This document shows positions 2,549 through 46,316 of a DNA stretch of 64,000 nucleotides, piece by piece; within the stretch, counting starts at the first letter, position 1; every line of letters begins with the position of its first letter. The notes below the pieces were generated by a model. That model did not search any database. It was given only the letters and a program-made list of their open reading frames with translations, and had not been told where the DNA came from. This DNA is from Parachlamydiales bacterium. GTDB lineage: Bacteria > Chlamydiota > Chlamydiia > Chlamydiales > Rhabdochlamydiaceae. A program made the position numbers and the translations under genes. The DNA is taken from NCBI GenBank assembly GCA_023265455.1, contig JAHFTQ010000006.1, positions 30,746 to 94,745 on the forward strand, written 5' to 3'.

Positions 2549-3117
2549 AGGTCTTTTTTGAGCTCGGGATTTTTCAAATAGGCGGCGGCCTGCTGCATGA
2601 GGATAACGGGAGTCTCGCCTAGGAAACAGGTTTTAGAGGCGGGGGTTTCTTTGTAAAAACGAGCTAGAGAAAGCGATTTCCACTCTTGTAAAGGGGGAGC
2701 GAGGATGAGTTTGAGCTGAGGAGAGCTAAGGATCATCTCCCAGCCATTTTCTTTTTCGATCTCAATGAGATGAGCTGGAGCTAAATGAGAGTGAATGGCT
2801 TTTGTCATATTTTGTAAAAGTTGTAATGCAGCGTCACTCTCTTTGAGAGTTAGCACAAGCACTTGGGCGGTCAGTTGGGGCTCTTTCCACAGGTTCGAGC
2901 GCTTGCGAGCTTCATGATCCGGGGGAATTTCCGTCTTCAAAGCCATCTCAGGAAGAGCTTTTTTAATGAGCTTTTGCATTTCAGGATCGATCACTTCGGA
3001 GGGCCTTTTTTTCTTCGTGGAGAAATACTCAAACTCTTCAGGAGAAACCAAAATGGAGTCTTGTTTTGCAGCTTCTTGCTTGAGAAATTCTAAAGAGTCG
3101 CGGATGAGTTGATCCAT
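2509..3117 (-). CDS. Hypothetical protein
   Basis: 202-aa ORF co-directional with priA, overlapping its start by 40 nt. I recognise no motif. Confidence 0.45.
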   Translation of the reverse strand: MDQLIRDSLEFLKQEAAKQDSILVSPEEFEYFSTKKKRPSEVIDPEMQKLIKKALPEMALKTEIPPDHEARKRSNLWKEPQLTAQVLVLTLKESDAALQLLQNMTKAIHSHLAPAHLIEIEKENGWEMILSSPQLKLILAPPLQEWKSLSLARFYKETPASKTCFLGETPVILMQQAAAYLKNPELKKDLWKTLSTLLSTST

Positions 3118-3648: not shown

Positions 3649-6210
3649 TTAAAATGAAAATTTTAATTCGCCTTCTGCGACATTCTCAATGAATTTTTTT
3701 CCGTACTCTCCATGGTAACCTAAAGTGAAAGCTACTTTTTTCTCAGGGAAGGCATAACTGAAGATGGCAGAGGGGCAGATGAGATCGTTGGTGGGCAGTA
3801 GTCCATTGACTGTAAATTGGCAGGAGCTATTTTTAAAGCCTGCTTTAGTTTTTTTTCCCTGAAAGCGGCGCTCATGGGCATAGCTAAGTGAGATTTCTCC
3901 CATCCATTTGCCAGATGTTGAACACTTAATGAAAGCACTGCCAAGACCGATTTCTGTTCTTAAAAGATCGTAGTTTTTTTGATGAACTTTCAAATCTAGA
4001 CTTTGTGCTCCTTTCTCTTGATAACCGCTTTGTACGGTGTGTGTGTAATCCCCATTGACGAAGGGGTAAAGGTGGATGGTTTTATTAGGGGTATGCCAAA
4101 CTTTAAAGTCATAACCGCCTCCTAAGTGCTCTAGGAATTCATGAGAATGTTGGGGATGCGCAGCTGCTTGGTGATCCCTGTAAGAAAAAAGAGGGGTTGC
4201 AACATTGAAGTGCATAGCGCGCTCGGCTTGAGTTTTGTGGTGAAGATAGGAGAAAAGAGCATCAGCAAAAAAATGAGAATTTGTCCAGAGGGTTCCTAAA
4301 GAGCCCGCATAACTATCGGAATGGGCATCAGCTAGATGACCCATTTTTACATGAGTTTTGGAATATGAAAAACCCGTTGTAAATATCCAATGCTCTTTAA
4401 GCTGATAATCTAATGCAGTGGTAAATCCTGCAAACGTCTCTTGGTACCCTTTTAAATTTTCATGGCCATCTTGGTGCACCCATTCGACAAAAGGTGCCGC
4501 CCAAAAAGACCAAGCTCTCTTCTCAGAATCATCATTCTGAGAGCAGTTGAGTACGTTGGCCTCCAAGAGGTGCCTGCTATAAGTTTGACGAATTCTTTCA
4601 GCTACATTTTCTTGAGCAAAAGCAATTGAATTGAAATCTGCAGGAGACATTTGAGTGAAAGTCGTTTGCCTTTCGCTTTGACTTTGGAAAGCGAGCATTG
4701 TGATGAAATTTTCTAAATCAGGGAGCCTTTTGTTAATGAGGGTGTTAAAACATTTTACAATAGCGCCGGTTTCGCCGGATGCAACATATTGATTAAAGGA
4801 TTGCAAAACCACGAAGACATGATTGGAATCATAGAAAGTAAGGTAGCGAACGTTAGGATCCCCACTGCTAAGTGTGAAAGGGGCATTTTGAATAACACCC
4901 TCTAATGCTGTGATAATCGTATACATAGGAAGTTGAGGAGAGCTTCCTTCTAATGATGATAGGGTAAGGGATGTCCCTGGATTAATGGTCACGGTCCCTG
5001 TTGCTAAGATGAGATCGGAACGTGTTTCGCCAATTTCAACGAAATAATTTGAGCCACTGTTAAATGTAACATTTCCAACGGTTCCGTTTCCCGCTAAGGT
5101 CGCGCTATTTTCAATTGTGATAGGGGAATTTGAGATAACCCCATTGACAATGAGGGTTCCTGCTGAAATAGTTGTTGGCCCATTGTAAGTGTTATTTCCC
5201 GTGAGAATAAGTTTTCCAGGACCCGTTTTAGTCAGAGAGCCCGCTCCTTCGATGTTTCCAGCAAAGGTGGCATTAACAGAGGTATCCGTTTGCAGGGTCC
5301 CATTTTCAGCATTCAAAATTAGCACATTGTTAAGAGTGCTCGATTCCCATGCAGTTAAAAGTTGAAGGGTGGACTCATTAAATATAATCGCACCAACTCC
5401 TAAATTCGTAGGACTTGAAACCTGCACAATTCCGCCGTTTAGGGTTGTCGTGCCAGCATAGTTATTTGTTCCTGTTAGATTTAGTGTGCTATTATTTTGT
5501 ATCGTCACATTTCCTGTTCCACTGATCTGACCGCCATAGGTTCCTGTTCCTATTTGGTTAAAAATCAACTCGGAATTATTGGTGATAGGACCTTGAAGAG
5601 TGATGGAATTGCCTTGCAGAGTCCCGTCTTGGATAGTTGTTCCTCCTGAGTAATGGTTAATGGTTCCTGTGAGAATGAGTTTTCCAGGGCCTGTTTTAAT
5701 CAAAGCACCTGTTCCCCCCAGGCTTCCACTGAATGTTGCATTAACAGAAGTATCTGTTTGTAGGGTTCCATTTCCGCTACCCAGCGTCATACTATTAGTA
5801 AAAGTATGGGTTCCAAAAGAGGGGAGTAACTCGAGGGTTCCTCCAGAAAAGCTAAAATTATTAAAGCCCAAATTTGATGGGCTGGAAATTTGTACGGTTC
5901 CCCCCTTAAAAATGGTATTTCCTCCATAGGTATTCATCCCCGTCAGAAGGAGTATGCCCGTCCCTGTTTTGGTTAAGTTTCCGATGCCCCCAATGTTTGT
6001 ACTGATCGTTGCACTAGCAGGATGATCTGTTAGGAAGGTTCCTCCCTCTGCATTGAGGATGATAGGGCGAGATAGCGTGAGTCCTGCCATCAATTCTAGT
6101 GTTTCACCATTGAAAACCAAGCGATCTTCACCAAATAGAGCACCTATGCTTGCACATGAAAGACAGATCCAATAGGCGTATTCCCAAATAGCGAATTTGT
6201 TATTTCTCAT
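3649..6210 (-). CDS. Type Va autotransporter outer membrane protein with PATR-type passenger repeats
   Basis: 853 aa with an N-terminal signal-like segment. It has at least four autotransporter-associated beta-strand repeats (GILLLTGMNTYGGNTIFKGGTVQISS; GKLILTGTINHYSGGTTIQDGTLQ; LNLTGTNNYAGTTTLNGGIVQVSS; GKLILTGNNTYNGPTTISAGTLIVNG). The C-terminal region has alternating aromatic residues typical of a beta-barrel and ends in ...ELKFSF. Confidence 0.85.
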   Translation of the reverse strand: MRNNKFAIWEYAYWICLSCASIGALFGEDRLVFNGETLELMAGLTLSRPIILNAEGGTFLTDHPASATISTNIGGIGNLTKTGTGILLLTGMNTYGGNTIFKGGTVQISSPSNLGFNNFSFSGGTLELLPSFGTHTFTNSMTLGSGNGTLQTDTSVNATFSGSLGGTGALIKTGPGKLILTGTINHYSGGTTIQDGTLQGNSITLQGPITNNSELIFNQIGTGTYGGQISGTGNVTIQNNSTLNLTGTNNYAGTTTLNGGIVQVSSPTNLGVGAIIFNESTLQLLTAWESSTLNNVLILNAENGTLQTDTSVNATFAGNIEGAGSLTKTGPGKLILTGNNTYNGPTTISAGTLIVNGVISNSPITIENSATLAGNGTVGNVTFNSGSNYFVEIGETRSDLILATGTVTINPGTSLTLSSLEGSSPQLPMYTIITALEGVIQNAPFTLSSGDPNVRYLTFYDSNHVFVVLQSFNQYVASGETGAIVKCFNTLINKRLPDLENFITMLAFQSQSERQTTFTQMSPADFNSIAFAQENVAERIRQTYSRHLLEANVLNCSQNDDSEKRAWSFWAAPFVEWVHQDGHENLKGYQETFAGFTTALDYQLKEHWIFTTGFSYSKTHVKMGHLADAHSDSYAGSLGTLWTNSHFFADALFSYLHHKTQAERAMHFNVATPLFSYRDHQAAAHPQHSHEFLEHLGGGYDFKVWHTPNKTIHLYPFVNGDYTHTVQSGYQEKGAQSLDLKVHQKNYDLLRTEIGLGSAFIKCSTSGKWMGEISLSYAHERRFQGKKTKAGFKNSSCQFTVNGLLPTNDLICPSAIFSYAFPEKKVAFTLGYHGEYGKKFIENVAEGELKFSF

Positions 6211-11041: not shown

Positions 11042-11209
11042 CTAGTGCCCGACCACGAAAATCTTTCACATTTCGGCTGCGTCAAAGCCTCGGGGTTCAA
11101 CGATCGTAAAGCTAGCTGTATTGATTAATACTGCGCGCTTTACGATCGTTGAACCGCGAGAGCTTTCACGTCAGCCCAAATGCGAAAGATTTTCGTGGTC
11201 GGGCACTAA
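11042..11209. repeat. Family B long palindrome, copy B1
   Basis: Left arm ctagtgcccgaccacgaaaatctttcacatttcggctgcgtcaaagcctcggggttcaacgatcgtaaag pairs with right arm ctttacgatcgttgaaccgcgagagctttcacgtcagcccaaatgcgaaagattttcgtggtcgggcactaag. The central loop is around gtattgattaatac. Confidence 0.85.
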
Positions 11210-11255
11210 GAGTTGTTGCGAAGAAATTGGACTGTGCCCCATAAGGGGGGAAAGA

Positions 11256-11415
11256 CCTCTTTCGGAATTAAGGGTTCGTCGATTTTCTGGATTATTTTGG
11301 CCGTCTTTCGGTTTTTTTTGCAGGGGTAATATCAATATTCGTATATTACCCCTGCAAAAAAAATCGAAAAACGGTCAAAAGAACCAGAAAATCGACAGAA
11401 CCTTAGTTTCGAAGG
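11256..11415. repeat. Family C long palindrome, copy C1; its right end overlaps the sucC ribosome-binding region
   Basis: Arms cgattttctggattattttggccgtctttcggttttttttgcaggggtaatat and atattacccctgcaaaaaaaatcgaaaaacggtcaaaagaaccagaaaatcg, with loop caatattcgt. Confidence 0.85.
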
Positions 11416-11432
11416 AGGTCGAAGGCAGAATT

Positions 11433-15424: not shown

Positions 15425-17230
15425 ATGGGACTATTAACGACGGTGAGGCAGGCCTATACTCTGGCATCTCCCTACTTTTCTCCTGTGCGGGGAAATTGGG
15501 GCAGAATAGGGGGTGTAGCAGGCTCGGTTTTTATGATGGCGTTTCGAGCCCAATATGATGGGGTGATGCATAAGCGCATGTATGCTTTTTTTGACTTTTT
15601 TCAACAAAAAAGACCGATTGCAGAATTTAACGGGGTCTTCCGAGCCGCTGTCGGTGGATTTGTTTCGATTATGGCGACTGACATGGTCAGGGAGTTTCTT
15701 CAAAAGCGGTTAGAGCTTTCTTTTCAGAATGCTATGTTGAAAGATACCCTCGAGCGTTGGCTTAAAGAAGAGAATTATCTAGGGGTTAAAACGCGAAAAT
15801 GGGAAATCTCAAAAAAGATCTGCTGTACACTTGAAGATAAAATTCCTAATTTTACATCGACGACTCTCACCTTGGTTATTGAGAGAGTCGGAGATCTGGT
15901 GATCAATCTTCTCTCTTTATATCGCATCTATCACCTATCAAAACCTCTATATTCGAAGTCTCTGCAGTTCCCTTTTAACCGCCCTGGAGGCGTTTTCGCT
16001 GTGATGATCGGTATATTGGGGGTGTTTTCTTGGATCAAGATCAGAGCACAAGCAGGTATTGCAAAATCCCATGCGCTTCTCAATCAAAAGGAGTCCGAGG
16101 CGTTAGATCTGATCGGTTCTCTAGAGGGAAATGCTCTTCAAACGGCTTCTCTGCTTCTAAAGTATAGAAAAAATATTTTAGATGACATCAAAAACACTAG
16201 TGCATGCGCGTTATCTGAGGTATCTTCCTTTAAACTCACCAGATTGTTCAATACTAATATGACCTTCATGTTCCCTAACGCTTTTCAATTATCACTGGTT
16301 TATTTGGCCTCTTTGTTTGCCAAAGTAGATCCGGAAAATTTTGACTACACGAACTCTTTTTTACCCCTATTTAGGGAGTGCATGAACTTCATGTGGAGGA
16401 GTACGAGCTTAATTCAGGGTGTTCTCGATGACTGGCTAAAGTATGATAGTAGTGTCCAAAGAATTCGGGCATTATCTGAAGTCATCTCTCAGTATGAAAA
16501 TCGACAAAAGACTATAACCATTACCCGCGGGGCCCAGCTTTCAATTCAAGACCTGACTGTCAAAGTCATGAAAGATAAAGACGAGAAGACTTTATTTAGT
16601 CAGTTGAATCTTAATATTGATCCGGGGTCCGTCTATTTCGTCTCTGGAGAGAACGGGTCTGGAAAAACAGTTCTGCTACAGACAATTGCAGGCGTTCATA
16701 CGCTTGGGACAGGCAGAGTGACAGTTCCAGGGCCTGTCTCGTATTTACAGCCCAAGATTGAAATAGATCCAGCTAAAGCAGATTTTGCTGGAATACTGAG
16801 AAAAACATTTGGGATGATAGATCCGGAAGAGGTTGGGAAGGTTCGGTCTTATTTGAAAGAATTTAGGTCGTTTTACCCGGATGGTCAGTGGAAATTTCCA
16901 GAGGTTATCGAAGGTAAACGTGATTGGTTCAAGTTAAGCGATGGGGAAAAACAGGTCTTAAATCTAGCCGTCAATTTAACTATGATGGAGAAGGTCACAA
17001 CCCCTTTATTGATTTTGGCGGATGAAATCTTGGGTCAAGTTGATGATAGGACTAAGGTTGGGCTGTCGTCAAGAGCAAAAGCACTGGATCTTCTAAAAAA
17101 ACTAGCAAATGGTGCGGTTAAACACACGATCCTCCTTGTCGACCATAGCGGCGCAGGAATGGAGTGGGATAAAGAAAATAAGATTACGAAGAGCCAAGGT
17201 GCAGACTTTGAAATCTACAAACTAAACTAA
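15425..17230 (+). CDS. ABC transporter, fused SbmA/BacA-ABCD-type membrane domain and ATPase
   Basis: The N-terminal transmembrane region has an L-x-x-R-W-L-x-x-x-x-Y-like element (LERWLKEENYLGV). Walker A SGENGSGKT, signature LSDGEKQ, Walker B LILADE. Confidence 0.7.
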   Translation: MGLLTTVRQAYTLASPYFSPVRGNWGRIGGVAGSVFMMAFRAQYDGVMHKRMYAFFDFFQQKRPIAEFNGVFRAAVGGFVSIMATDMVREFLQKRLELSFQNAMLKDTLERWLKEENYLGVKTRKWEISKKICCTLEDKIPNFTSTTLTLVIERVGDLVINLLSLYRIYHLSKPLYSKSLQFPFNRPGGVFAVMIGILGVFSWIKIRAQAGIAKSHALLNQKESEALDLIGSLEGNALQTASLLLKYRKNILDDIKNTSACALSEVSSFKLTRLFNTNMTFMFPNAFQLSLVYLASLFAKVDPENFDYTNSFLPLFRECMNFMWRSTSLIQGVLDDWLKYDSSVQRIRALSEVISQYENRQKTITITRGAQLSIQDLTVKVMKDKDEKTLFSQLNLNIDPGSVYFVSGENGSGKTVLLQTIAGVHTLGTGRVTVPGPVSYLQPKIEIDPAKADFAGILRKTFGMIDPEEVGKVRSYLKEFRSFYPDGQWKFPEVIEGKRDWFKLSDGEKQVLNLAVNLTMMEKVTTPLLILADEILGQVDDRTKVGLSSRAKALDLLKKLANGAVKHTILLVDHSGAGMEWDKENKITKSQGADFEIYKLN

Positions 17231-17467
17231 CGCCATGTGCAACTTTTGTCATATCACGTAGTTATCAGTACTTTGTCCTAAGAGTATGAGTTTCATCAGC
17301 GCAGAGGCGCTTCGCGCGGGAGAGACGCTGAGGACGCGGAGAGGAAACTTAAAAATCCCCCTCTGCGTCCTCAGCGTCTCCTGCTTTGCGCGGAGCGCCT
17401 CTGCGCTGATGAAATTTAACGCTATAACTTGATCGGTTGGGTGGTGTGCTAAAAGTTGCACATGGCG
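17231..17467. repeat. Family A MITE-like element, copy A2 (full length, 237 bp)
   Basis: 17-nt terminal inverted repeats cgccatgtgcaactttt / aaaagttgcacatggcg. The internal GC-rich palindrome is catcagcgcagaggcgcttcgcgcgggagagacgctgaggacgc...gcgtcctcagcgtctc...gcgcctctgcgctgatg. It fills the entire gap between the stop codons at 17228-17230 and 17468-17470. Confidence 0.85.
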
Positions 17468-19219
17468 TTAAACTAGAGCTTTGTCGCTCGTTTGGATGCT
17501 CCAGAGCTGGGCATAGCGTCCCCTAAGGTCGAGGAGTTGCTGGTGGGTGCCTTCTTCGATGACGCACCCTTTTTCAAAGACGAGAATGCGGTCCATTTGG
17601 CGCAGTGTCGAGAGCCGGTGGGCGATGGCCAAGGTGGTGCGGTCTTGCATGAGGTAATCGAGGCTGGATTGGATCTGTTGTTCGGTGAAAGAATCCAGAG
17701 CCGATGTCGCTTCATCTAAAATCAGAATGGGGGCGTTTTTCAAAATCGCCCGAGCAATCGATAACCGTTGACGTTGGCCTCCTGAGAGTTTAAGTCCACG
17801 CTCGCCGACGATGGTTTGATACCCTTCTTTCATTTGTAGGATAAACGGGTGGCAGTGGGCTTTTTTGGAAGCTTCTATGATTTCAGGCTCGGTAGCGTCA
17901 TGTTTTCCATAGAGAATATTTTCATGAACCGTACGGTGGAATAAGACCGTATCTTGAGGGATCATGGCAATATGGCGGGTCAGTGAAGAACGGGTGACTT
18001 TGGAGATGTCTTGGCCATCAATCAGAATACGGCCGCTGGAGAGTTCATAGAGTCTGAGGAGTAGGTGGACGAGCGTGCTTTTTCCGCTGCCGGAGAGTCC
18101 AACGAGGCCGACTTTTTCTCCGGGGGCGATTTTTAGGGAGAGATTTTCAAAAATGGGCTGTCCGTTGAAATAGTTAAAGGAGACCTTGTCAAAGACGATT
18201 TCCCCTTTTGTAATGGCAAGGTCGGTAGCCTCGGGAGAATCTAGTGCATCAGGTGGTCTGGAAATGATGGAGAGGGCTTGCTTACAGACACCCACATCTT
18301 CAGAGAAGGTGACAAACTGCATCGCCAGATAAAACGTTTCATCCACGATGCCGGTGGTGAGTGTGAGGACGAGTGCGAAGTCGCCGACAGTGATCCAGCC
18401 TTGCAGCCGTGTGTAAATGAGAAGCCCCATCATTGCAAAGATCAGGAGCGTAATCGAAACGCTCTGGATCGATTTGAGTTTCATCATGTACCAGTGAAGG
18501 CGTTGTTCTTTGTCAACCATCTCTTTGATGTGTTTACGGAGGTAGCCGTGTTCGTATTTCTCTGTCGCAAAGAGCTTGATATTGAAAATATTCGTCATGG
18601 CATCGACGACTTTTCCCATGACAGTGCTGCGTGATTCTGAAAATTCGGTGCTGTATTTTTCCGATTTTTTAGCGAGGGTATAAGAGAGAAGAAAGAAAAT
18701 ACCCGACCACAGAATCAACGCGAGGGCAAAGAGGGGATGGACCCAGAAGAGAGTTGAAAGACTAAAAATGAATAGTAAGCTGCGAGAGAAAAAGTCATCA
18801 ATGACAGAGCAGAGGACTGTAATGATGTTTTTAGAGAGGTCAGAGATCTTATTGGAAAGGGTTCCGGCGAGTTGAGTTTGAAAAAAATAGTAAGAATGCT
18901 TCTGGAGATGAGCATGCATATCTTCGATAATGTCGGCTCTGATCCGTGGGAAAACTTTTAAAAATAGATAATCGTAGGCGGTGCTCAGGGATAATAAAAC
19001 AATGGCCATCCCAAAATAGCCGCAAATGGGGCCTAGGGCATAGTGGATGAGCTCATCTGTCGGATGCTCTGCAACGGCGTCGATGATGAGCTTGACCATC
19101 ATCGGATTTAAAGAAAAATAGGCAGCCCAGATGAGGCCGACTGCAAAAAGTCCTAAAACAGGCCACTTGTAACGGTTGGCGTAGTGCCAGGTAAAACTTG
19201 TGAGTGAACGAAAGATCAT
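17468..19219 (-). CDS. ABC exporter, fused permease/ATPase (MsbA/multidrug-type)
   Basis: 583 aa with six predicted transmembrane segments, then GLSGSGKST, LSGGQRQRLSIARA and ILILDEATSALD. Confidence 0.9.
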   Translation of the reverse strand: MIFRSLTSFTWHYANRYKWPVLGLFAVGLIWAAYFSLNPMMVKLIIDAVAEHPTDELIHYALGPICGYFGMAIVLLSLSTAYDYLFLKVFPRIRADIIEDMHAHLQKHSYYFFQTQLAGTLSNKISDLSKNIITVLCSVIDDFFSRSLLFIFSLSTLFWVHPLFALALILWSGIFFLLSYTLAKKSEKYSTEFSESRSTVMGKVVDAMTNIFNIKLFATEKYEHGYLRKHIKEMVDKEQRLHWYMMKLKSIQSVSITLLIFAMMGLLIYTRLQGWITVGDFALVLTLTTGIVDETFYLAMQFVTFSEDVGVCKQALSIISRPPDALDSPEATDLAITKGEIVFDKVSFNYFNGQPIFENLSLKIAPGEKVGLVGLSGSGKSTLVHLLLRLYELSSGRILIDGQDISKVTRSSLTRHIAMIPQDTVLFHRTVHENILYGKHDATEPEIIEASKKAHCHPFILQMKEGYQTIVGERGLKLSGGQRQRLSIARAILKNAPILILDEATSALDSFTEQQIQSSLDYLMQDRTTLAIAHRLSTLRQMDRILVFEKGCVIEEGTHQQLLDLRGRYAQLWSIQTSDKALV

Positions 19220-25586: not shown

Positions 25587-27140
25587 TTAAACGTGTTCAT
25601 TTTGTTTCGCTCTCTGATTGACCGTCCGGTTTTTACGAGATTTCTCTCTCCCGGCTGTGACATTTTCAGTCTCGATAGGAACGGTGGATACATCCCTAGT
25701 TCGGTGTCTAGAGTCCTGCCCGGAACAGTCAGGGGGTTCTCCCCTTTCCAATCGGCGATGGAACCTGTCTTGAAGAATGATTTTCACTTGACTGTAAGGC
25801 GTATACAGTCCGATCTCGGGATCGTTCATTCTTCTGGCATAGTTCAGTGCGGCAATCCGATCTGCTGTGTCCTCATGTCTACAATGTAGACATTGAAAGC
25901 GGTCTCCCATGCGATTTCCTTGATCCACAAATTCACAAAGGGGACAGCTTTGAGAGCCATAGGCCGGATTGACCTGCTCATGGCGGAAACCTTCCGCCAG
26001 CGCTTTAAAGGCTATTCGATCTTGTATTTTTCCTCTGATCCACGAAGATAGCCGTCTGTTCACTTTTTTGGGTTTATCATAGATAAAGGCATGTCTTAGA
26101 TTTTCTGTGACCAAGATAGAGGGTTTTTTTGTGTGGATGAGTTGGTTGATGGAGGTATTGATTTGTTTTTCTAAAGTGGCTTTAACGCTTTGGGAGTTGG
26201 AGTGCTGTTTTTTCTTGCCAAGGTTGAATTTACGAAGGCGCTTAGCTTGCTGAGGGTTGCTAAGTCTTCGTTTTTTCTCAAGGGAGTGGAGTTTATGCCG
26301 TTTTTGCATTTTATGAGACAAGGTATCTGAGGCTTGGGTCAGTGTCGTCCCAAATTCTGTGCCATAGCGGATGCCTTGAGTGTCTGTCATCACTTCGGTA
26401 TAACCCAAGTCAACGGCCTCCAGGGATGTTTTAGGAGTGGTTTTCTTTTTTAATGCTTGGGGAATGTGAAGGTTAAATGTATTGTCAGCTGAGTAAATGA
26501 GTGTGATTGTGCCGGAGATGGCTGTTTTGCCGGAGAGGGGGATGCAAATCCTTTTGCCGGGTGTCAAAGACATGAGCTTTATGTATTGGCACTCTTTTTT
26601 TTCAAATACATCGTAACAGTTGGCATCAAATCGGACGCTTCTGGATATTTTGACGGTAGGAGGCTTCCCTTGGCAAGCTCTGATCAGTCTTCGTACATAA
26701 TTTGCAGTGCGTTTTTGAGCTGATTTTTCGATTGGGAAAGAGGGGTCGGGACTTTTGCCTTGCATCATGGCTGCAAATGATGAGGAGCTTTTGAGGAGCC
26801 AGTAAGCATAATGCTGCTCTATTTCTGTGAGGTCTTTGCGACGAGCAATCTTTGGACGGACTTTAACAAAAAGGGCTTGCCAGTATTTGTTCCATGTTTC
26901 GGCTGCGTCTTCAAGGGCAAGTTTCCAATGACGGGCTTGCAGCCCTTGGGGAGATTTATATGCTTGCTTAATCATCTTGTCGCGGATGGTTCGTGGTCTG
27001 TCTAAATGAACTTGGAAGCTCCAGGCTTGAAATTGACGCAGCCAGTACTGTTTTTCATTGGAATAGGCCTGGCAGATGTCTCTCAGAGAAATTTGTTTTT
27101 TAGCATTGAGTCGTAAAGTATCACGCTTAAGGGTTCTCAT
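25587..27140 (-). CDS. tnpB: TnpB (OrfB) RNA-guided endonuclease family protein
   Basis: RuvC-I AVDLGYT, RuvC-II ILVTENL, zinc ribbon CPLC...CLHC, RuvC-III DTADRIAALNYA. It overlaps the tnpA stop by 14 nt. Confidence 0.85.
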   Translation of the reverse strand: MRTLKRDTLRLNAKKQISLRDICQAYSNEKQYWLRQFQAWSFQVHLDRPRTIRDKMIKQAYKSPQGLQARHWKLALEDAAETWNKYWQALFVKVRPKIARRKDLTEIEQHYAYWLLKSSSSFAAMMQGKSPDPSFPIEKSAQKRTANYVRRLIRACQGKPPTVKISRSVRFDANCYDVFEKKECQYIKLMSLTPGKRICIPLSGKTAISGTITLIYSADNTFNLHIPQALKKKTTPKTSLEAVDLGYTEVMTDTQGIRYGTEFGTTLTQASDTLSHKMQKRHKLHSLEKKRRLSNPQQAKRLRKFNLGKKKQHSNSQSVKATLEKQINTSINQLIHTKKPSILVTENLRHAFIYDKPKKVNRRLSSWIRGKIQDRIAFKALAEGFRHEQVNPAYGSQSCPLCEFVDQGNRMGDRFQCLHCRHEDTADRIAALNYARRMNDPEIGLYTPYSQVKIILQDRFHRRLERGEPPDCSGQDSRHRTRDVSTVPIETENVTAGREKSRKNRTVNQRAKQNEHV

Positions 27141-27735
27141 TGTCTCTTGCCATCTCGATTATCTTTTTTTTGTATTTTCTCAGTCCATCTAAACGGCTGG
27201 AAAAACAATGTATAATTGATAGGAGGTCTTTCGTCATTTCTTGTTCGGGAGAAAGGGTATCGGCATTCATAACAAGAATAGAAACGCCGTGATCCTTGCA
27301 GAATTTTTCAAACCATTCGAATCCGAAGCGGACTAATCTATCTTTATGAGCTATTACAATTTTAGAGATCTCTCCTTGTTCTACCATTTCCATCAGATGC
27401 AAGAAATGTTTCCGTTTGTAATTTAATCCGGAGCCGATATCTTCTATTTTTTTATCAATGATCATTCCTGCTGCCAAGCAGAAGGATTCTACAGCATTCT
27501 TCTGCGAAATCAAATCCTTTTTTTGACTTGCACTTGATACTCGACAATATGTGACTAATAGACGTCTTTTAGACTTTTGCCCTGTGACCTGTAAATACTG
27601 ATCATGGGTATAGTAGCGTCGTTGTGTAATAGAGCGATGGGCCTTGAGTAGTCCTTTTCGATCCCATCTTTGAAGGGTTTTTGTTGTTTTCCCGATCAGC
27701 AATCCAAATTTACCAGGAGAATATATGTTCTTCAT
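27127..27735 (-). CDS. tnpA: IS607-family serine recombinase transposase (MerR-like HTH plus resolvase catalytic domain)
   Basis: The N-terminal HTH is GKTTKTLQRWDRKGLL, followed by YCRVSSASQKKDL, the catalytic serine motif. Confidence 0.85.
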   Translation of the reverse strand: MKNIYSPGKFGLLIGKTTKTLQRWDRKGLLKAHRSITQRRYYTHDQYLQVTGQKSKRRLLVTYCRVSSASQKKDLISQKNAVESFCLAAGMIIDKKIEDIGSGLNYKRKHFLHLMEMVEQGEISKIVIAHKDRLVRFGFEWFEKFCKDHGVSILVMNADTLSPEQEMTKDLLSIIHCFSSRLDGLRKYKKKIIEMARDNENP

Positions 27736-39945: not shown

Positions 39946-41313
39946 ATGTTCAAACGTCTGATCGATTGGCATCTTAAAGCATGGAAGGATCACAAATACC
40001 GCAAGCCCTTACTGCTGCGGGGAGCTCGCCAGGTGGGAAAAACACACGCAGTCAGACAACTCGGTAAACATTTTGACCATATGATCGAGATCAATTTTGA
40101 ACTGGCAAAAGATGCTAAGCCCATTTTTGACAAAGATCTTAGGCCAGAGAGGATTTTGCGAGAATTGGCTGCGTACGTGGGACGAACAAAGATAATCCCT
40201 GGGAAAACACTGCTATTTTTTGATGAAATTCAAGAGGCTCCTGAGGCGATTTTAGCGCTTCGTTATTTTTATGAAGAAATGCCAGAGCTTCACGTCATTG
40301 CAGCAGGCTCGCTTTTTGATTTTGCACTGGAACAGGTGGGGCTGCCTGTAGGCCGGGTTTCAAGTATGTATATGTATCCGCTATCATTCATAGAATATTT
40401 AGCCGCAAGTGGGAATATTGCAGCAGTCCAGACAATTTTAGGGAACCCGAATAAAGAATCGTTTTCTGAACCCATTCATCAATCGCTGATGAGTTTGGTG
40501 GGAGAGTATTTAGCTATTGGAGGTATGCCAGAGGCTGTCGCAAAGTGGGTGGAAGAGAGAAACCCCAAAGAGAGTTTTCAGGTTCATCATGACTTGATTG
40601 CCTCGTATCGGCAAGATTTTGAAAAATACGCTTCTAAACCTCAGATGGAACCTATTGATACCCTTTTTCGTCAAATACCCTCTATGGTTGGAGAAGAGTT
40701 TCAATATAAAAACATTCATGGGGAATTCCGAAAAAGAGAGCTTGCGCCTTGTTTGGATTTGCTTTGCAAAGCCAATGTGGTACACAGGATCCAGCATAGC
40801 GCTGGGAATGGTATTCCTCTGGGAGCTGAAGTCAATTTAGAGTGGTTCAAACTCATTTTAGTTGACGTTGCGCTTTGCCAGGCGACGTTAGGGTTCGATC
40901 TTTCAACATGGTTTTTAGAGCCGGGGCTTGATTTTGTTAATCGGGGATCTATCACAGAGGCGTTCGTGGGACAAGAACTGCTTTGCTATTCTCACCCTCA
41001 TCAAAAAGCCGAGCTCCATTTTTGGAAGCGTCAGGCTAAAAGTAGCACAGCAGAAGTTGATTATCTCTTTGAGTACAATCGAGAGATTGTTCCGATTGAG
41101 GTCAAAAGCGGGGATGGAAGAACGTTAAAGAGCATGCTAATGTTTTTAGAGAATCATCCTGATTCGCCTTATGGGGTGCGGTTTTCAGCGCAAAACTATT
41201 CTCAATGGGAAAAGGTTGATTCAAGGCCGCTCTATGCTGTTTGTTCTTTAGCGCATGAAGAGCAAAAGCAGGCACTAGACTATTTACTTGAGTTTCCCAA
41301 ATTTTTGGCTTGA
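39946..41313 (+). CDS. DUF4143-type AAA ATPase (intact paralog of the IS-disrupted gene)
   Basis: Walker A RGARQVGKTH, Walker B LLFFDEIQE and HVIAAGS. The C-terminal DUF4143-like region ends ...EVDYLFEYNREIVPIEVKSG. Confidence 0.85.
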   Translation: MFKRLIDWHLKAWKDHKYRKPLLLRGARQVGKTHAVRQLGKHFDHMIEINFELAKDAKPIFDKDLRPERILRELAAYVGRTKIIPGKTLLFFDEIQEAPEAILALRYFYEEMPELHVIAAGSLFDFALEQVGLPVGRVSSMYMYPLSFIEYLAASGNIAAVQTILGNPNKESFSEPIHQSLMSLVGEYLAIGGMPEAVAKWVEERNPKESFQVHHDLIASYRQDFEKYASKPQMEPIDTLFRQIPSMVGEEFQYKNIHGEFRKRELAPCLDLLCKANVVHRIQHSAGNGIPLGAEVNLEWFKLILVDVALCQATLGFDLSTWFLEPGLDFVNRGSITEAFVGQELLCYSHPHQKAELHFWKRQAKSSTAEVDYLFEYNREIVPIEVKSGDGRTLKSMLMFLENHPDSPYGVRFSAQNYSQWEKVDSRPLYAVCSLAHEEQKQALDYLLEFPKFLA

Positions 41314-41448
41314 CAGAACTGTTCTCTATAGGCGACCGCAAGGCGCGGGCACGACGGATATAGCCAAGTGGCTATTTCCGAGTGCCCGCAACACAGCGGT
41401 CGCCATAGAGAACAGGAGATGTCAAGCTAAAAATTTGGGAAACTCAAG
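41285..41448. repeat. Family E long palindrome (E1), overlapping the last roughly 10 codons and the stop of the AAA ATPase gene
   Basis: tacttgagtttcccaaatttttggcttgacagaactgttctctataggcgaccgc... pairs with ...gcggtcgccatagagaacaggagatgtcaagctaaaaatttgggaaactcaagta. Confidence 0.85.
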
Positions 41449-41532
41449 TATTTAATAACCGGATAAAAATCAGCTTGTAATCAAAGCGTGAAGCTCCTCA
41501 GATCAACAGGAATGCATAACTCGTCTTCTAAT

Positions 41533-42888: not shown

Positions 42889-45021
42889 TCAAGAAAGCTG
42901 GACCCTGCCTAGAGGTTGGATGCGCATTTCTGGGACGATCTCTTGGTAGGAGACGACGGGCAGATCGGGGAACTCACCTTCGATGAGTTTGCGGCTGAAG
43001 CGGCGGACATCGATGGCGGTGAGGAGCACAGGGGGTTGTCCTCCGGCGGGAGTCGGGGTAATGGTGCTACGCATCGCATGCATGATCATTTGAACAGCGT
43101 CGGGGTCTAGGGCAAGGTAGGAGCCGGCAGAGGTTTGTTTGATGGCTCCGCGGATCATGTCTTCAATGACAGGATCGAGGAGATAGACGGCTAGGACCGA
43201 TTGGCCAAGTGAGTATTTGTAACTGATGTACCGCTTGAGAGACGAGCGGATATATTCGGTGAGGAGGACGGTATCTTTTTCGGTTTGGGCCCACTCGCTG
43301 AGAGATTCTAAGATGGTACGGAGATCTTTGATCGAGACTTGTTCTTGAACAAGTCGGCGGAAGATCTCGGTGAGTTTTTGAAGGGGGACAAGACGGGTGA
43401 CTTCTTTGACGAGGTCAGGGTATGATTTTTCAACAAATTCTAAAATGGCGCGGACTTCTTGGATACCGATGAAATCGCTGGCGTGCATGCGGTAGAAATA
43501 AGAGAGGTGGAGGATGATGACTTCAAGGGGCTTCCAAAATTTGATCCCCGCTTTTTGGAGAACTTCTTGGAATCGATTATCAATCCAAACAGAAGGCAGG
43601 CCAAAAACGGTTTTAGACTGAGTAAAGGGGATGTTGTATTTGCGAAGGATATCGGGAGATTCGTTGACGAGAAGATAGCCTTCTCCAATTCTGCCGCGCA
43701 CGACGGGAACTTCATTGAGAAGAATGGCGTATTCATCGGCTTCTAAATTGGGTGAGTCGGTGCGAACGTGGACTCCGGGGAAGCGGACGCCCAGGTCTTG
43801 ATAGAGGGCATGGCGCATTTTGGGGACCATGTCTTCGATAAAGGTCGTTCCGCCGCGTTCTTTTTTCATGACTTGGGATAGGCTTTTACCGACTTCTAAG
43901 ATAATGGGGAGTGTGAGGGCGTATTCATCAGTAGGGCCGCGGACCATGGCATGTCCACCAGCTTCAGCACCACCGCCTCCTCCGACCATTCCAGAGGCGG
44001 CTTTAGCGGCGGCTTTCTTCGCGCTATTCATCCGGACAATCCCCATGGTTCCTAAGAGAAAGCTGAGAATGATGAAAATCGGTTTTGGCAAGCCAGGAAT
44101 AAACACAAAGAGAAACAAAGCAGCGGCTGCGATCAGGATCGCTTTGGGCTGACCGAGAAGCTGACTTGAGATCTCGGTTCCGAGGTGAGAGTCTTTCTTT
44201 TCACTGGAGACGCGGGTTGTCACGATACCGGCTGTCATCGAAATGAGAAGAGAGGGGAGCTGTGAAATGAGTCCAGATCCAATGGAAAGGAGGGTATAGG
44301 TTTTGGCTGACTGAAGGGCAGTCATCCCATGCATGGTCACTCCGATGATGAGTCCCGCAACGATGTTAATAACAGCGATGACGATACCGGCGATCACGTC
44401 TCCCTTGACGAATTTCATGGCTCCGTCCATCGCTCCGTAAAGCTGACTTTCTCGGGCAAGAGCCAGGCGCAGTTCCCGGGCTTGGTTGGCATCGATGATG
44501 CCGCTTCTCATATCGGCATCGATGCTCATCTGTTTACCGGGCATGGCATCCAAGGTAAAGCGGGCAGCGACCTCAGCGACCCGTTCAGCACCTTTGGTGA
44601 CCACGATGAACTGGACGATGGTGATGATTAAGAAGACGACGCCTCCCACCACAAAGTTGCCTCCCACGACGAAGTTTCCAAATGTTTGGATGATGTGGCC
44701 TGCGTAGGCGTAAAGGAGGATCTGTTTAGTAGCTGAGATTTCAATCCCTAAGCGAAAAAGGGTCGTAATAAGAAGTAGAGAGGGGAACATCGAGAGGTTG
44801 ACGGCTTTGGGGATGTAGAGAGCGACCATCATCAAAGCAATGGAGACCGTCAAGTTGATAGCGATCAAATTATCCAAAAATGCGGGAGTCACTGGCAAGA
44901 CGATCATCATGATGATGGTGATCACAAAAAATGCCAAGATCACGTCGCTGGACTGACTGATAATGCGTAAGATTCTAGCGCCCCCTAAAGAGCGTCCGAG
45001 ATTTGTAAAAAAATTATTCAT
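42889..45021 (-). CDS. sctV: Type III secretion export apparatus protein SctV (CdsV; LcrD/FlhA family)
   Basis: 710 aa. The N-terminal polytopic domain has FLIITIVQFIVVTKGAERVAEVAARFTLDAMPGKQMSIDAD, the FHIPEP signature. A cytoplasmic C-terminal domain follows. Confidence 0.95.
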   Translation of the reverse strand: MNNFFTNLGRSLGGARILRIISQSSDVILAFFVITIIMMIVLPVTPAFLDNLIAINLTVSIALMMVALYIPKAVNLSMFPSLLLITTLFRLGIEISATKQILLYAYAGHIIQTFGNFVVGGNFVVGGVVFLIITIVQFIVVTKGAERVAEVAARFTLDAMPGKQMSIDADMRSGIIDANQARELRLALARESQLYGAMDGAMKFVKGDVIAGIVIAVINIVAGLIIGVTMHGMTALQSAKTYTLLSIGSGLISQLPSLLISMTAGIVTTRVSSEKKDSHLGTEISSQLLGQPKAILIAAAALFLFVFIPGLPKPIFIILSFLLGTMGIVRMNSAKKAAAKAASGMVGGGGGAEAGGHAMVRGPTDEYALTLPIILEVGKSLSQVMKKERGGTTFIEDMVPKMRHALYQDLGVRFPGVHVRTDSPNLEADEYAILLNEVPVVRGRIGEGYLLVNESPDILRKYNIPFTQSKTVFGLPSVWIDNRFQEVLQKAGIKFWKPLEVIILHLSYFYRMHASDFIGIQEVRAILEFVEKSYPDLVKEVTRLVPLQKLTEIFRRLVQEQVSIKDLRTILESLSEWAQTEKDTVLLTEYIRSSLKRYISYKYSLGQSVLAVYLLDPVIEDMIRGAIKQTSAGSYLALDPDAVQMIMHAMRSTITPTPAGGQPPVLLTAIDVRRFSRKLIEGEFPDLPVVSYQEIVPEMRIQPLGRVQLS

Positions 45022-46088
45022 GTAAACAGCTTTGGTTCCTCTTCTCCGGCTTCAAGCCGTTTCAGCCACTGCAGGAGCTCTGCGATAGCCTCATAGGTCT
45101 CCTCAGGTACATAATCGCCGATTTTGCCTTTCTGGGAAAGAGTTTGTGCAAGTTGGACGTTTCTCATGATGGGAATTTGGGCTTCTTGCGCAAAGCGAAT
45201 GATCTGATCGGCGATGAGTCCTTGCCCCATGGTCACAATCCGGGGAGCCGGTTCAATTTCTTCTTTATATTCGATAGCGACCGCGATATGGACGGGGTTT
45301 GTAATAATGGCTCTGGCCCGGCGAGCTGAGATGGGACCTTCTTGATAGGCCATCTCTTGAGCGACTTGCTTGCGGCGGCTTTTCATGTGGGGGTCGCCTT
45401 CCGTGTCACGGTACTCTTGCTTGATCTCAAATTTTTCCATTTTCATTTCTTTCATGAAATTGTGCTTTTGGTAAGCGAGATCGAAAATCGCGATGATCAG
45501 GAAGAAAATGCCGACCCGGATAATGACCTTAACAAGGAAATCAGAGAAAACTGCTGCGCTCCCTAGAACGGGCATGGCAGCTGTGGCGATGATTTCAGGA
45601 ACGCTATTGTAGATCACGGAGTAGATGAGGAGCATGGCTCCAAAAATTTTTAAGATGGATTTAAGCAGCTCAATCAAGGTTTTTAGTTTGAACATGTTCT
45701 TGAGATTGGTCACCGGATTGAGCCTTTTAGGGTCCATTTTAAGGACTTCGCTAGAAAAGACAGGCCCTACGATCAAGAACGAGACTAAGACTCCAGTTAG
45801 GCTTGTGATCACGACAATCGGAAGGCTGCACTCGAGAATGACCATCAAGCACTGGCCTAGGTAGCCTCCCATCCGGTTGGCTATATCTGTGGTTTGCCCG
45901 ATGCTGCGAAATGTCGAAATTAAGTAGCCTCCCATCTGCTGAAAGAGATGCTTAGTGGTAAATAGCACAACCGCGATCGAGGTGACAAAGGTGAAAGCGG
46001 AAGGAAAGTCTTGCGACTTTGCCACCTGTCCTTTTTTACGAGCGTCACGGAGTTTTTTCGGCGTCGCCTTTTCTGTTTTTTCTGCCAT
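45018..46088 (-). CDS. sctU: Type III secretion export apparatus switch protein SctU (CdsU; YscU/FlhB family)
   Basis: MAEKTEKATPKKLRDARKKGQVAKSQD, four transmembrane segments and MKMEKFEIKQEYRDTEGDPHMKSRR. The autocleavage loop reads ITNPVHIAVAI, whereas NPTH is canonical. The start overlaps the sctV stop region. Confidence 0.95.
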   Translation of the reverse strand: MAEKTEKATPKKLRDARKKGQVAKSQDFPSAFTFVTSIAVVLFTTKHLFQQMGGYLISTFRSIGQTTDIANRMGGYLGQCLMVILECSLPIVVITSLTGVLVSFLIVGPVFSSEVLKMDPKRLNPVTNLKNMFKLKTLIELLKSILKIFGAMLLIYSVIYNSVPEIIATAAMPVLGSAAVFSDFLVKVIIRVGIFFLIIAIFDLAYQKHNFMKEMKMEKFEIKQEYRDTEGDPHMKSRRKQVAQEMAYQEGPISARRARAIITNPVHIAVAIEYKEEIEPAPRIVTMGQGLIADQIIRFAQEAQIPIMRNVQLAQTLSQKGKIGDYVPEETYEAIAELLQWLKRLEAGEEEPKLFT

Positions 46089-46131
46089 AGACTTCGCTTA
46101 TTTAAGCATGAACGGTAAAATTTGCCTAGAT

Positions 46132-46298
46132 TTATACCGAACTCTATGGAATAATTAAAATTTATGCGAAGAGATTTTGACCTGAGAGGTGATGAAAAGG
46201 GCCGAGGTAAACTTGAGAAAGTTACTTCGGCCCTTTTCATCACCTCTCAGGTCAAAAGATCGAGCAGAATCTTAACTATTCCATAGAGTTCGGTATAA
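46132..46298. repeat. Family D long palindrome (D1) in the divergent sctU / U-box-like intergenic region
   Basis: ttataccgaactctatggaataattaaaatttatgcgaagagattttgacctgagaggtgatgaaaagggccgaggtaa pairs with gttacttcggcccttttcatcacctctcaggtcaaaagatcgagcagaatcttaactattccatagagttcggtataa. Confidence 0.85.
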
Positions 46299-46316
46299 CA
46301 CCAGGGGATTTAACTT

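Follow-up and report, generated by a model that had tools for sequence, protein, structure and literature searches.

Bacterial miniature inverted-repeat transposable elements (MITEs), such as Correia/NEMIS in Neisseria, Nezha in cyanobacteria and ERIC/IRU in enterobacteria, are short, non-coding, multi-copy sequences with terminal repeats and target duplications that form long hairpins, lie between genes at gene ends, and can rebuild or alter stop codons. The 23S rRNA intervening sequences of Leptospira and Coxiella are built in a related way, with a long terminal stem and an optional small open reading frame (ORF) from a multi-copy family, and they too occur in ORF-less versions. Here we describe a 239-bp element that shares these features of the bacterial MITEs and lies between two convergent ATP-binding cassette (ABC) genes in a 64-kb stretch of a Parachlamydiales bacterium contig (JAHFTQ010000006.1; this whole stretch is hereafter the window). 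We conclude that it is a real MITE, ordinary in kind, that represents a new family with an unusual nested, flippable and ORF-less core. It is likely a non-autonomous composite, in which an outer MITE layer encloses a separate hairpin core related to cassettes that carry genes for GxxExxY proteins.

Anatomy of the element

An earlier note on this DNA had described a 237-bp unit with 17-nt terminal inverted repeats. The repeats hold up well: the 17-mer CGCCATGTGCAACTTTT lies at 17231-17247 on the forward strand with its exact reverse complement at 17451-17467, only 0.17 matches are expected by chance in the 64-kb window, and the observed count was reached in none of 100 shuffles. The extent had to be corrected, as the alignment with a second copy (copy B, 53160-53398) starts exactly at 17230 and ends exactly at 17468; the element (copy A) is thus 239 bp long, and its repeats are 18 nt once the terminal A and T are counted. 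Two arms and a GC-rich core are present as the note had proposed, with sizes of 61, 54 and 124 nt in place of arms of about 45 nt and a core of about 115 nt. Copy A comprises the following parts.

17230-17468, + strand: composite element copy A, 239 bp, ends set by alignment with copy B
17230-17247, + strand: left terminal inverted repeat ACGCCATGTGCAACTTTT, 18 nt, perfect in copy A
17230-17290, + strand: left arm (LA type), 61 nt, with a small hairpin TACTTTGTCCTAAGAGTA inside and ATGAG adjoining the core
17291-17414, + strand: hairpin core, 124 nt, GC-rich, two half-cores of ~55 nt and a short loop
17292-17347: type-1 half-core, reading GCGCTTCGCGCGGGAGAGACGC
17356-17413, - strand: type-2 half-core, reading GCGCTCCGCGCAAAGCAGGAGACGC
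17415-17468, + strand: right arm (RA type), 54 nt
17451-17468: right terminal inverted repeat, part of the right arm

Each half-core consists of a terminal box TTCATCAGCGCAGAG, a mini-hairpin (GCGC TTC GCGC at 17307-17317 in copy A) and a run of GAGACGCTGAGGACGCGGAGAGG repeats. The half-cores of the window score 51-59 bits against the half-core profile and are separated by loops of 8-13 nt. A 249-nt stretch containing copy A folds at -158.5 kcal/mol, compared with -73.6 +/- 4.8 kcal/mol for dinucleotide shuffles (z = -17.9). Two independent ENA assemblies (L001 and L002) contain copy A at 100% identity over 239 bp, between the same two flanking genes, so it is not an assembly artefact; the locus is also present in four groundwater-metagenome runs (Logan).

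The only ORF in copy A encodes 70 aa, and its relatives among 5.8 billion proteins form two clusters, both of which lie inside other copies of the element. We reject it as a real gene, since these only relatives were called within other element copies, in agreement with its earlier description as spurious. A comparison of the window with Rfam 15 gave no matches at the gathering threshold, and a permissive scan at the copy A locus returned only sub-threshold microRNA-like hairpin look-alikes. A possible hammerhead ribozyme at the core end (CUGAUGA..GAAA) was also rejected, given that no helix II lies between the boxes and Rfam gives no support. The viral contigs, plasmids and phages searched contained no copy of the element.

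Insertion between two convergent ABC genes

The element abuts the stop codons of two convergent ABC genes (at 17230 and 17468), a fit that the earlier note had already observed, and it is flanked by a direct repeat of 7 bp.

15425-17230, + strand: ABC-type ATPase gene, 601 aa, Pfam ABC_tran, with the insertion at its 3' end
17223-17229: left target-site duplication, TAAACTA, 7 bp, direct repeat
17469-17475: right target-site duplication, TAAACTA, 7 bp
17468-19219, - strand: convergent ABC exporter gene, 583 aa, Pfam ABC_membrane and ABC_tran, with the insertion at its 3' end

The TAA stop of the forward gene is made up of the last two bases of the left TAAACTA and the first A of the element, and the TTA (a TAA stop) of the reverse gene is made up of the last T of the element and the first two bases of the right TAAACTA. 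The exact fit between the stop codons arises because the TAAACTA duplication and the element's terminal A and T rebuilt both TAA stops. Complementarity that runs on through the stop codons, likewise noted earlier, is real and exists because the terminal A and T are joined by a TA at each duplication end. What looked odd is thus what a 7-bp duplication is expected to produce after a transposon inserts where convergent genes overlap at their ends.

Removing the element and one TAAACTA in silico yields CTAAACTAG, in the context ...AAACTAAACTAGAGC..., and in this reconstructed empty site the forward gene ends in ..EIYKLN* and the reverse gene in ..SDKALV*, with both C-termini intact, TAG stops, and an overlap of 9 nt. 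Judging from this reconstruction, the two genes probably overlapped by 9 nt before the insertion. The element would have entered CTAAACTAG within that overlap, where each gene had a TAG stop, and the TAAACTA duplication together with the terminal A and T would have given each gene a TAA at the same codon. The nearest homologue of the forward gene (L026, 68% identity) stops at the same codon (..EIYKLD*), is not followed by the element, and has different downstream DNA and synteny; only 8 homologues of the 601-aa protein were found. The locus offers a neat and fully reconstructable example of a mobile element that parts two overlapping genes with neither protein changed.

Further copies in the window and in groundwater metagenomes

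A second full copy and a diverged core-only hairpin are present in the window.

53160-53398, - strand: copy B, 239 bp, arms reversed relative to copy A, 36 kb from copy A
53154-53159 and 53399-53404: target-site duplication of copy B, GTATTG, 6 bp
53214-53337, + strand: core of copy B, oriented on the contig as in copy A and flipped relative to its own arms
196-307, - strand: third, diverged core-only hairpin, between the priA stop and the start of the next gene, without outer arms

The terminal repeat of copy B differs at 1 of 18 bases, and copies C, D and E retain a recognisable version of it. Copy C (L025, 2225-2435) comprises a left arm, a core and a truncated right arm, and copies D, E and F were recovered from Logan contigs together with several further flanks. 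There are at least four further element loci besides copies A and B in contigs of the same groundwater metagenomes, and the copies may not all belong to one genome. Copy D is flanked by a 7-bp duplication, ATTTAGA (left flank ...ATTTAGA|ACGCC, right flank ...GCGT|ATTTAGATATTC, on Logan contigs), for which the probability of a chance 7-mer match is ~0.002 with ~30 flank pairs compared. The arms of copy E, which lies on a 5152-nt contig, are diverged, and only 8 nt take the place of 104 nt of the window core. The suggestion of a MITE-like element of an unrecognised family is therefore borne out by further copies, conserved terminal repeats and target duplications (TAAACTA, ATTTAGA and GTATTG); the preference for TAA or TTAA targets considered alongside it is not, the duplications being 6-7 bp of AT-rich sequence.

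In the Logan contigs, depth was ~7 for unique flanks, 20-70 for arms and 180-260 for core halves, so that by contig depth, which may include related strains, arms reach 3-10 times the unique depth and the core exceeds the arms ~3-5-fold. Contigs L003 and L004 break off after 27 nt of the element, as a repeat would lead one to expect. Long palindromes of this kind interrupt the assembly of environmental chlamydia-like genomes from metagenomes, and the family is one source of them.

Matches to the terminal repeat within the window are limited to the two full copies and one hit with 3 mismatches at 369-385, and none of them is near the IS607 copy at 25587-27735, which fits the earlier statement that no matching transposase lies in the window. 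Although this hit is beside the third core copy, it is probably a chance match, and it sits in the conserved C-terminus of PriA (Pfam PriA_C matched to residue 732 of 737). The lone terminal-repeat match among GTDB representatives, which apparently do not include the source genome, lies in a coding region of a member of the Hyphomicrobiales and was also judged to be chance. Extending the window leftward by ~5.6 kb via priA revealed no new copies.

The core flips relative to the arms and occurs separately

The arms and cores of the copies differ in relative orientation. The arms of copies A and B align with each other in reverse (left arm of A against right arm of B, 58/60; right arm of A against left arm of B, 47/53), and their cores align without inversion (116/124). 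Copies A and C agree at 59/60 positions of the left arm, and their cores agree at 121/124 positions only once one of them is reverse-complemented. Copy F is arranged like copy B, as a Logan loose end at 17394 shows. The core of copy A is thus inverted relative to the arms when compared with copies B, C and F, with a junction that is always the same, and the flip is unambiguous because the half-cores and the loop are asymmetric. We favour recombination in place, or template switching, between the halves over their outer ~21 nt, which are identical, as the probable cause of the flip, since neither requires an arm-only intermediate and the four runs showed none; repeated site-specific insertion is the alternative.

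Unrelated flanks at the Logan loose ends of positions 17289 and 17291 show that the core also occurs without the arms. The core at 196-307 has a left half that lacks the terminal box, and it is invariant in three other assemblies. A 28-nt mini-core at the arm centre of contig L012 (8677-8704) is composed of the first 20 nt of a half followed by TGATGAAA, and the spacing in the copy E contig implies a 28-nt mini-core there also, which places this form in two lineages whose arms are unrelated. This mini-core fits slippage between the GCGCT repeats at both ends of the palindrome. Contigs L012, L016 and L017, of a lineage other than that of the window, have the same design of arms around a central core with unrelated arms. 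In the spacer of contig L013, also of another lineage, ATGTGCAACTT is 47 nt from TTTCATCAG, a distance of 48 nt in copy B, and the arm-like stretch of L013 includes 11 exact bases of the terminal repeat.

Half-cores bracket GxxExxY genes

With a 20-mer from the core end (TTTCATCAGCGCAGAGGCRC) as query, 15 Joint Genome Institute (JGI) metagenome contigs were matched, 10 of which (37-50% GC) contain a recognisable half-core of ~55 nt. These half-cores are laid out as short hairpins like those of the window, as hairpins with ~90 nt of AT-rich filler (L011, L016 and L017), or as back-to-back pairs with a 38-60-nt spacer (L008, L010, L013, L014 and L018). In L007, a half-core pair encloses a 142-aa gene that matches PF13366 PDDEXK_3 (1.7e-39) and TIGR04256 GxxExxY (9.6e-43).

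Further GxxExxY loci were then picked by protein similarity alone. With L007 included, the gene is bracketed by half-cores or inverted repeats at 6 of 7 independent, mostly chlamydia-like loci. Contigs L028/L029, which share their ENA samples with the window, have sequence near-identical to the type-1 half of the window on both sides of the gene and a further 35-nt inverted repeat beyond the half-cores. Half-cores also bracket the gene in L034/35, L036/37 and L038/39, with inverted repeats in L036 and L038 that run 12-18 nt past the half-core, and in L030/31 the inverted repeat around the gene is diverged and at least 75 nt long. The unbracketed locus is L032, which has a separate hairpin downstream. 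In this 2.2-Mb genome, four tandem 52-nt units (GCTGACTCAGCTTAGTATGAATAGAAGCTGAACCATTTTGGTAGAGAGTT) directly follow the GxxExxY gene at 2925-3100, and a half-core-like hairpin comes after them.

A bracketing half consists of the TTCATCAGCGCAGAG box, a mini-hairpin of 4-9 bp, and 2-3 CAGAG-type repeats that end in GAGAA beside the start codon. The mini-hairpin keeps a fixed position across lineages with at least 7 different self-complementary stems, including GCGC/GCGC, GCAC/GTGC, ACGC/GCGT, TGCGCG/CGCGCA and GCTTGGGGC/GCCCCAAGC. At least 13 of the 120 closest GxxExxY homologues have an N- or C-terminal read-through extension that translates the half-core, with the form (F)IS(A/T)E...AENAE. Two of the homologues are labelled Chlamydiales bacterium and one neighbouring gene encodes the type III secretion protein CdsD; homologues and neighbours suggest that these loci belong to Chlamydiota. 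The 64-kb window itself contains no GxxExxY homologue.

GxxExxY proteins (PF13366/TIGR04256) form a very large family of unknown function, with more than 7,600 clusters in one search, and structured repeats that bracket their genes and spread as ORF-less hairpins provide a testable handle on what the protein does. A limited literature search, which does not prove novelty, found no published description of the half-core repeats or of their link to GxxExxY genes.

Related repeats in other phyla and in viral contigs

Annotated replicons were examined for inverted repeats near or directly flanking GxxExxY genes, and such repeats are present in several other genera, members of Bacteroidota and Gemmatimonadota among them.

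Bacteroides finegoldii: repeat TTCACCACAGAGGACGCAGAGGACACGGAG, 30 nt
Bernardetia sp.: repeat AACACAGAGATAAGGAGAACCACAGAGA, 28 nt
Sphingomonas parapaucimobilis: repeat TTCACGCGAAGGCGCGAGGACGCGA, 25 nt
Gemmatirosa kalamazoonensis: repeat GAACCGCAGAGGACGCAGAGGGCCG, 25 nt, 100%, upstream arm ~127 nt from the gene
Treponema saccharophilum: weaker repeat, 16 nt

The Bacteroides, Bernardetia, Gemmatirosa and Sphingomonas repeats have a common core, GAGGACGC(A/G), and two of the four contain CGCAGAGGACGCAGAGG itself. No flanking inverted repeats were found at the three most distant GxxExxY homologues (Fusobacteria, Persicobacter and Prevotella). In S. parapaucimobilis, the inverted repeats bound a 437-bp GxxExxY cassette in the spacer between fabD and fabG (L042, 562-998), and the same spacer in S. 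paeninsulae is only 32 nt long and has no cassette (L044, 474-505). This difference between the two Sphingomonas species indicates that the cassette was gained or lost as a unit.

The CGCAGAGGACGCAGAGG sequence also occurs in viral contigs, and 32 of its 85 occurrences there are paired with an inverted copy, in most cases at a distance of 15-150 nt. In IMG/VR contigs of ~62% GC (L110, L125, L093, L105, L072 and L052), the spaces between phage-like structural genes repeatedly contain hairpins of the type TTTCAA-CGCAGAGGACGCAGAGG...CCTCTGCG, with up to 5 copies within 12 kb and no GxxExxY gene.

Origin of the composite element

If the element is, as we think likely, a MITE layer around a separate core, its terminal repeats and duplications suggest that the outer element is of the cut-and-paste type and would be moved by a transposase encoded elsewhere, whose staggered cut would leave the 6-7-bp target duplication. 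The core may in turn descend from a hairpin-bracketed cassette for a GxxExxY nuclease of ~125-140 aa (PD-(D/E)XK), as an ORF-less derivative that would have been kept or re-created at the arm centre and would be prone to inversion and recurrent deletion. Several observations weigh against this explanation. Searches of the window, GTDB species representatives, viral contigs, plasmids and phages, which covered only part of the source genome, yielded no autonomous element that carries these terminal repeats. The four metagenome runs yielded neither an arm-only copy nor a junction that skips the element, and the empty-site comparison proposed in the earlier note accordingly produced no same-species empty site. 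The three known target duplications are of two lengths (7, 7 and 6 bp), and copy numbers rest on metagenome contig depth. The 17-mer CGCAGAGGACGCAGAGG is present in 74 viral-contig stretches that have no GxxExxY gene, and hairpins with CGCAGAGG repeats likewise occur in viral contigs without one. Given the CGCAGAGGACGCAGAGG stretches, we reject an exclusive link between gene and repeat: the association of half-cores with GxxExxY genes is frequent, not exclusive. Finally, the arm-like stretch of L013, together with the design of L012, L016 and L017, indicates that arms and core may be one ancestral unit.

That last point leads to an explanation that we regard as unlikely, in which all 239 bp derive from a GxxExxY cassette whose long repeats already held the arms, so that the core would be the functional end part, the arms fast-evolving extensions specific to each lineage, and the flip a later internal rearrangement. 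The inverted repeats that continue beyond the half-cores in L028, L036 and L038 agree with it, as do the shared design of L012, L016 and L017 with different arms, the nearly equal ATGTGCAACTT-TTTCATCAG distances of L013 and copy B, and the failure to find an arm-only copy in the four runs. It is opposed by the 3-5-fold excess of core over arms, with several unrelated flanks of the core in the same metagenomes, by the inner 40 nt of the two arms, which have no mutual complementarity, and by the variable orientation of the core among near-identical copies. Moreover, the conserved part is internal, and the ends, expected to be functional in a terminal-repeat transposon, differ completely between lineages. 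A broader proposal, that we put forward only tentatively, is that the cassette itself (the ~125-140-aa GxxExxY nuclease with TTCA box, mini-hairpin and CGCAGAGG repeats) mobilises both itself and ORF-less hairpins across phyla, with the core as a non-autonomous form. In this working model, the nuclease would recognise or cut its own hairpin ends, in a manner analogous to RAYT/REPIN systems with another enzyme fold. The bracketing of 6 of 7 loci, the repeats in four other genera, and the presence or absence of the cassette in Sphingomonas are hints in its favour.

We consider it very improbable that the element is instead an RNA hairpin selected by the host, whether as a bidirectional terminator, a function that the earlier note had raised, or as a 3'-end stabiliser, with copies maintained by selection. 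Such a role would suit the position between convergent genes, the very stable fold, the third core copy (196-307), which also follows a gene end, and the many other long intergenic palindromes in the window. However, a scan of 16900-17800 found no terminator of stem plus T-run on either strand, and no Rfam family was matched at threshold. Copy B lies upstream of a gene start, near a canonical terminator that is outside the copy: a stem plus T-run at 53508-53534 (+ strand), 110 nt downstream of copy B and ~70 nt upstream of an amino-acid permease gene. The target duplications and terminal repeats are marks of insertion rather than of selection. In three metatranscriptomes of the same study, the locus had no coverage. 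We give practically no credence to a chance palindrome or an assembly artefact, for which only the prior knowledge that metagenome assemblers can make foldback chimeras speaks; this origin is refuted by the second copy 36 kb away, by the fold, far outside the shuffled range, and by recovery of the locus in both ENA assemblies and all four Logan runs.

Other features of the window

At least four other long intergenic palindromes, partly nested, are present in the window (49236-49406; 11043-11208 and 11254-11420; 46125-46305; and 41285-41450), and the stretches folded have energies between -114 and -246 kcal/mol. A 43-nt segment is common to the palindromes at 49.3 kb and 11.3 kb. A TAA stop immediately precedes the one at 49237-49405, and TAA also comes directly after it, perhaps as a 3-bp duplication. 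MITE-like elements of several families seem to abound in this genome.

An IS607-type unit at 25587-27735 encodes a serine recombinase with a MerR-type helix-turn-helix (202 aa) that overlaps a 517-aa TnpB/Cas12f-like protein (Pfam). Its ends had been called unrelated to the element, and a BLAST search of the element against the window indeed gave no match in this IS607 copy. The window also encodes an autotransporter with PATR repeats (3649-6210), a Fic protein, and, at 42889-46088, a type III secretion FHIPEP protein (SctV-like, 710 aa) adjoining a 356-aa ORF. Taken with the chlamydial homologues at the GxxExxY loci, these genes point to a genome of an environmental member of the Chlamydiota. 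Three tandem repeats of ~105 nt (70-78% identical) at 58015-58323 are located within the C-terminal part of a DEAD-box helicase ORF (56851-58440).

Comparison with known systems

The element conforms to the usual description of a MITE in most respects. At 239 bp and without coding capacity it is within the size range (<~500 bp), its terminal inverted repeats are conserved among copies, target duplications flank it in three cases, and it is dispersed in multiple copies (two full copies in 64 kb and at least 4 metagenome loci); an autonomous partner with the same ends was not found in the collections searched. Correia elements duplicate TA, in contrast to the 6-7 bp duplicated here. Unlike known MITEs, the element showed no similarity to sequences in the Rfam, plasmid and phage collections and no known parent insertion sequence (IS), and its central module is independently repeated and variable in orientation. 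The terminal repeats and duplications also distinguish it from derivatives of IS200/IS605/IS607, and it does not have the GC-rich stem and U-tract of an intrinsic terminator on either strand (16900-17800).

The core resembles the doublets of repetitive extragenic palindromic (REP) sequences known as REPINs, and bacterial interspersed mosaic elements (BIMEs), in that two inverted units of ~55 nt form a hairpin that is dispersed between genes. As in REPs and BIMEs, the units occur head-to-head and tail-to-tail with different linkers, each has its own small hairpin, and an inverted pair of them surrounds one small enzyme gene, as REPs surround the genes for REP-associated tyrosine transposases (RAYTs). 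The core units are ~55 nt long, start with TTCATCAGCGC and have no terminal GTAG or CGTC, whereas REPs are 20-40 nt, and the flanked gene encodes a PF13366/TIGR04256 GxxExxY protein with a PD-(D/E)XK fold rather than an IS200-like Y1 transposase. Because unit size, tag and enzyme all differ, we do not assign the core to the REP/RAYT systems. The 23S rRNA intervening sequences, similar in plan to the cassettes, lie in rRNA helices and carry a four-helix-bundle protein, in contrast to the position between protein genes and the GxxExxY cargo seen here. With respect to the family of inverted-repeat-bracketed GxxExxY cassettes that we propose, the window core has the half-core anatomy as an inverted pair, and its copies, with no gene between the halves, are ORF-less derivatives at best.

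Nested MITEs, which are common in plants and occasional in bacteria, likewise carry one short repeat inside another and are amplified as a composite. The element differs from them in that its inner unit occupies exactly the same position in both orientations among near-identical copies and in that a 28-nt mini-core recurs, which together suggest inversion or deletion in place, or site-specific re-insertion, rather than random nesting.

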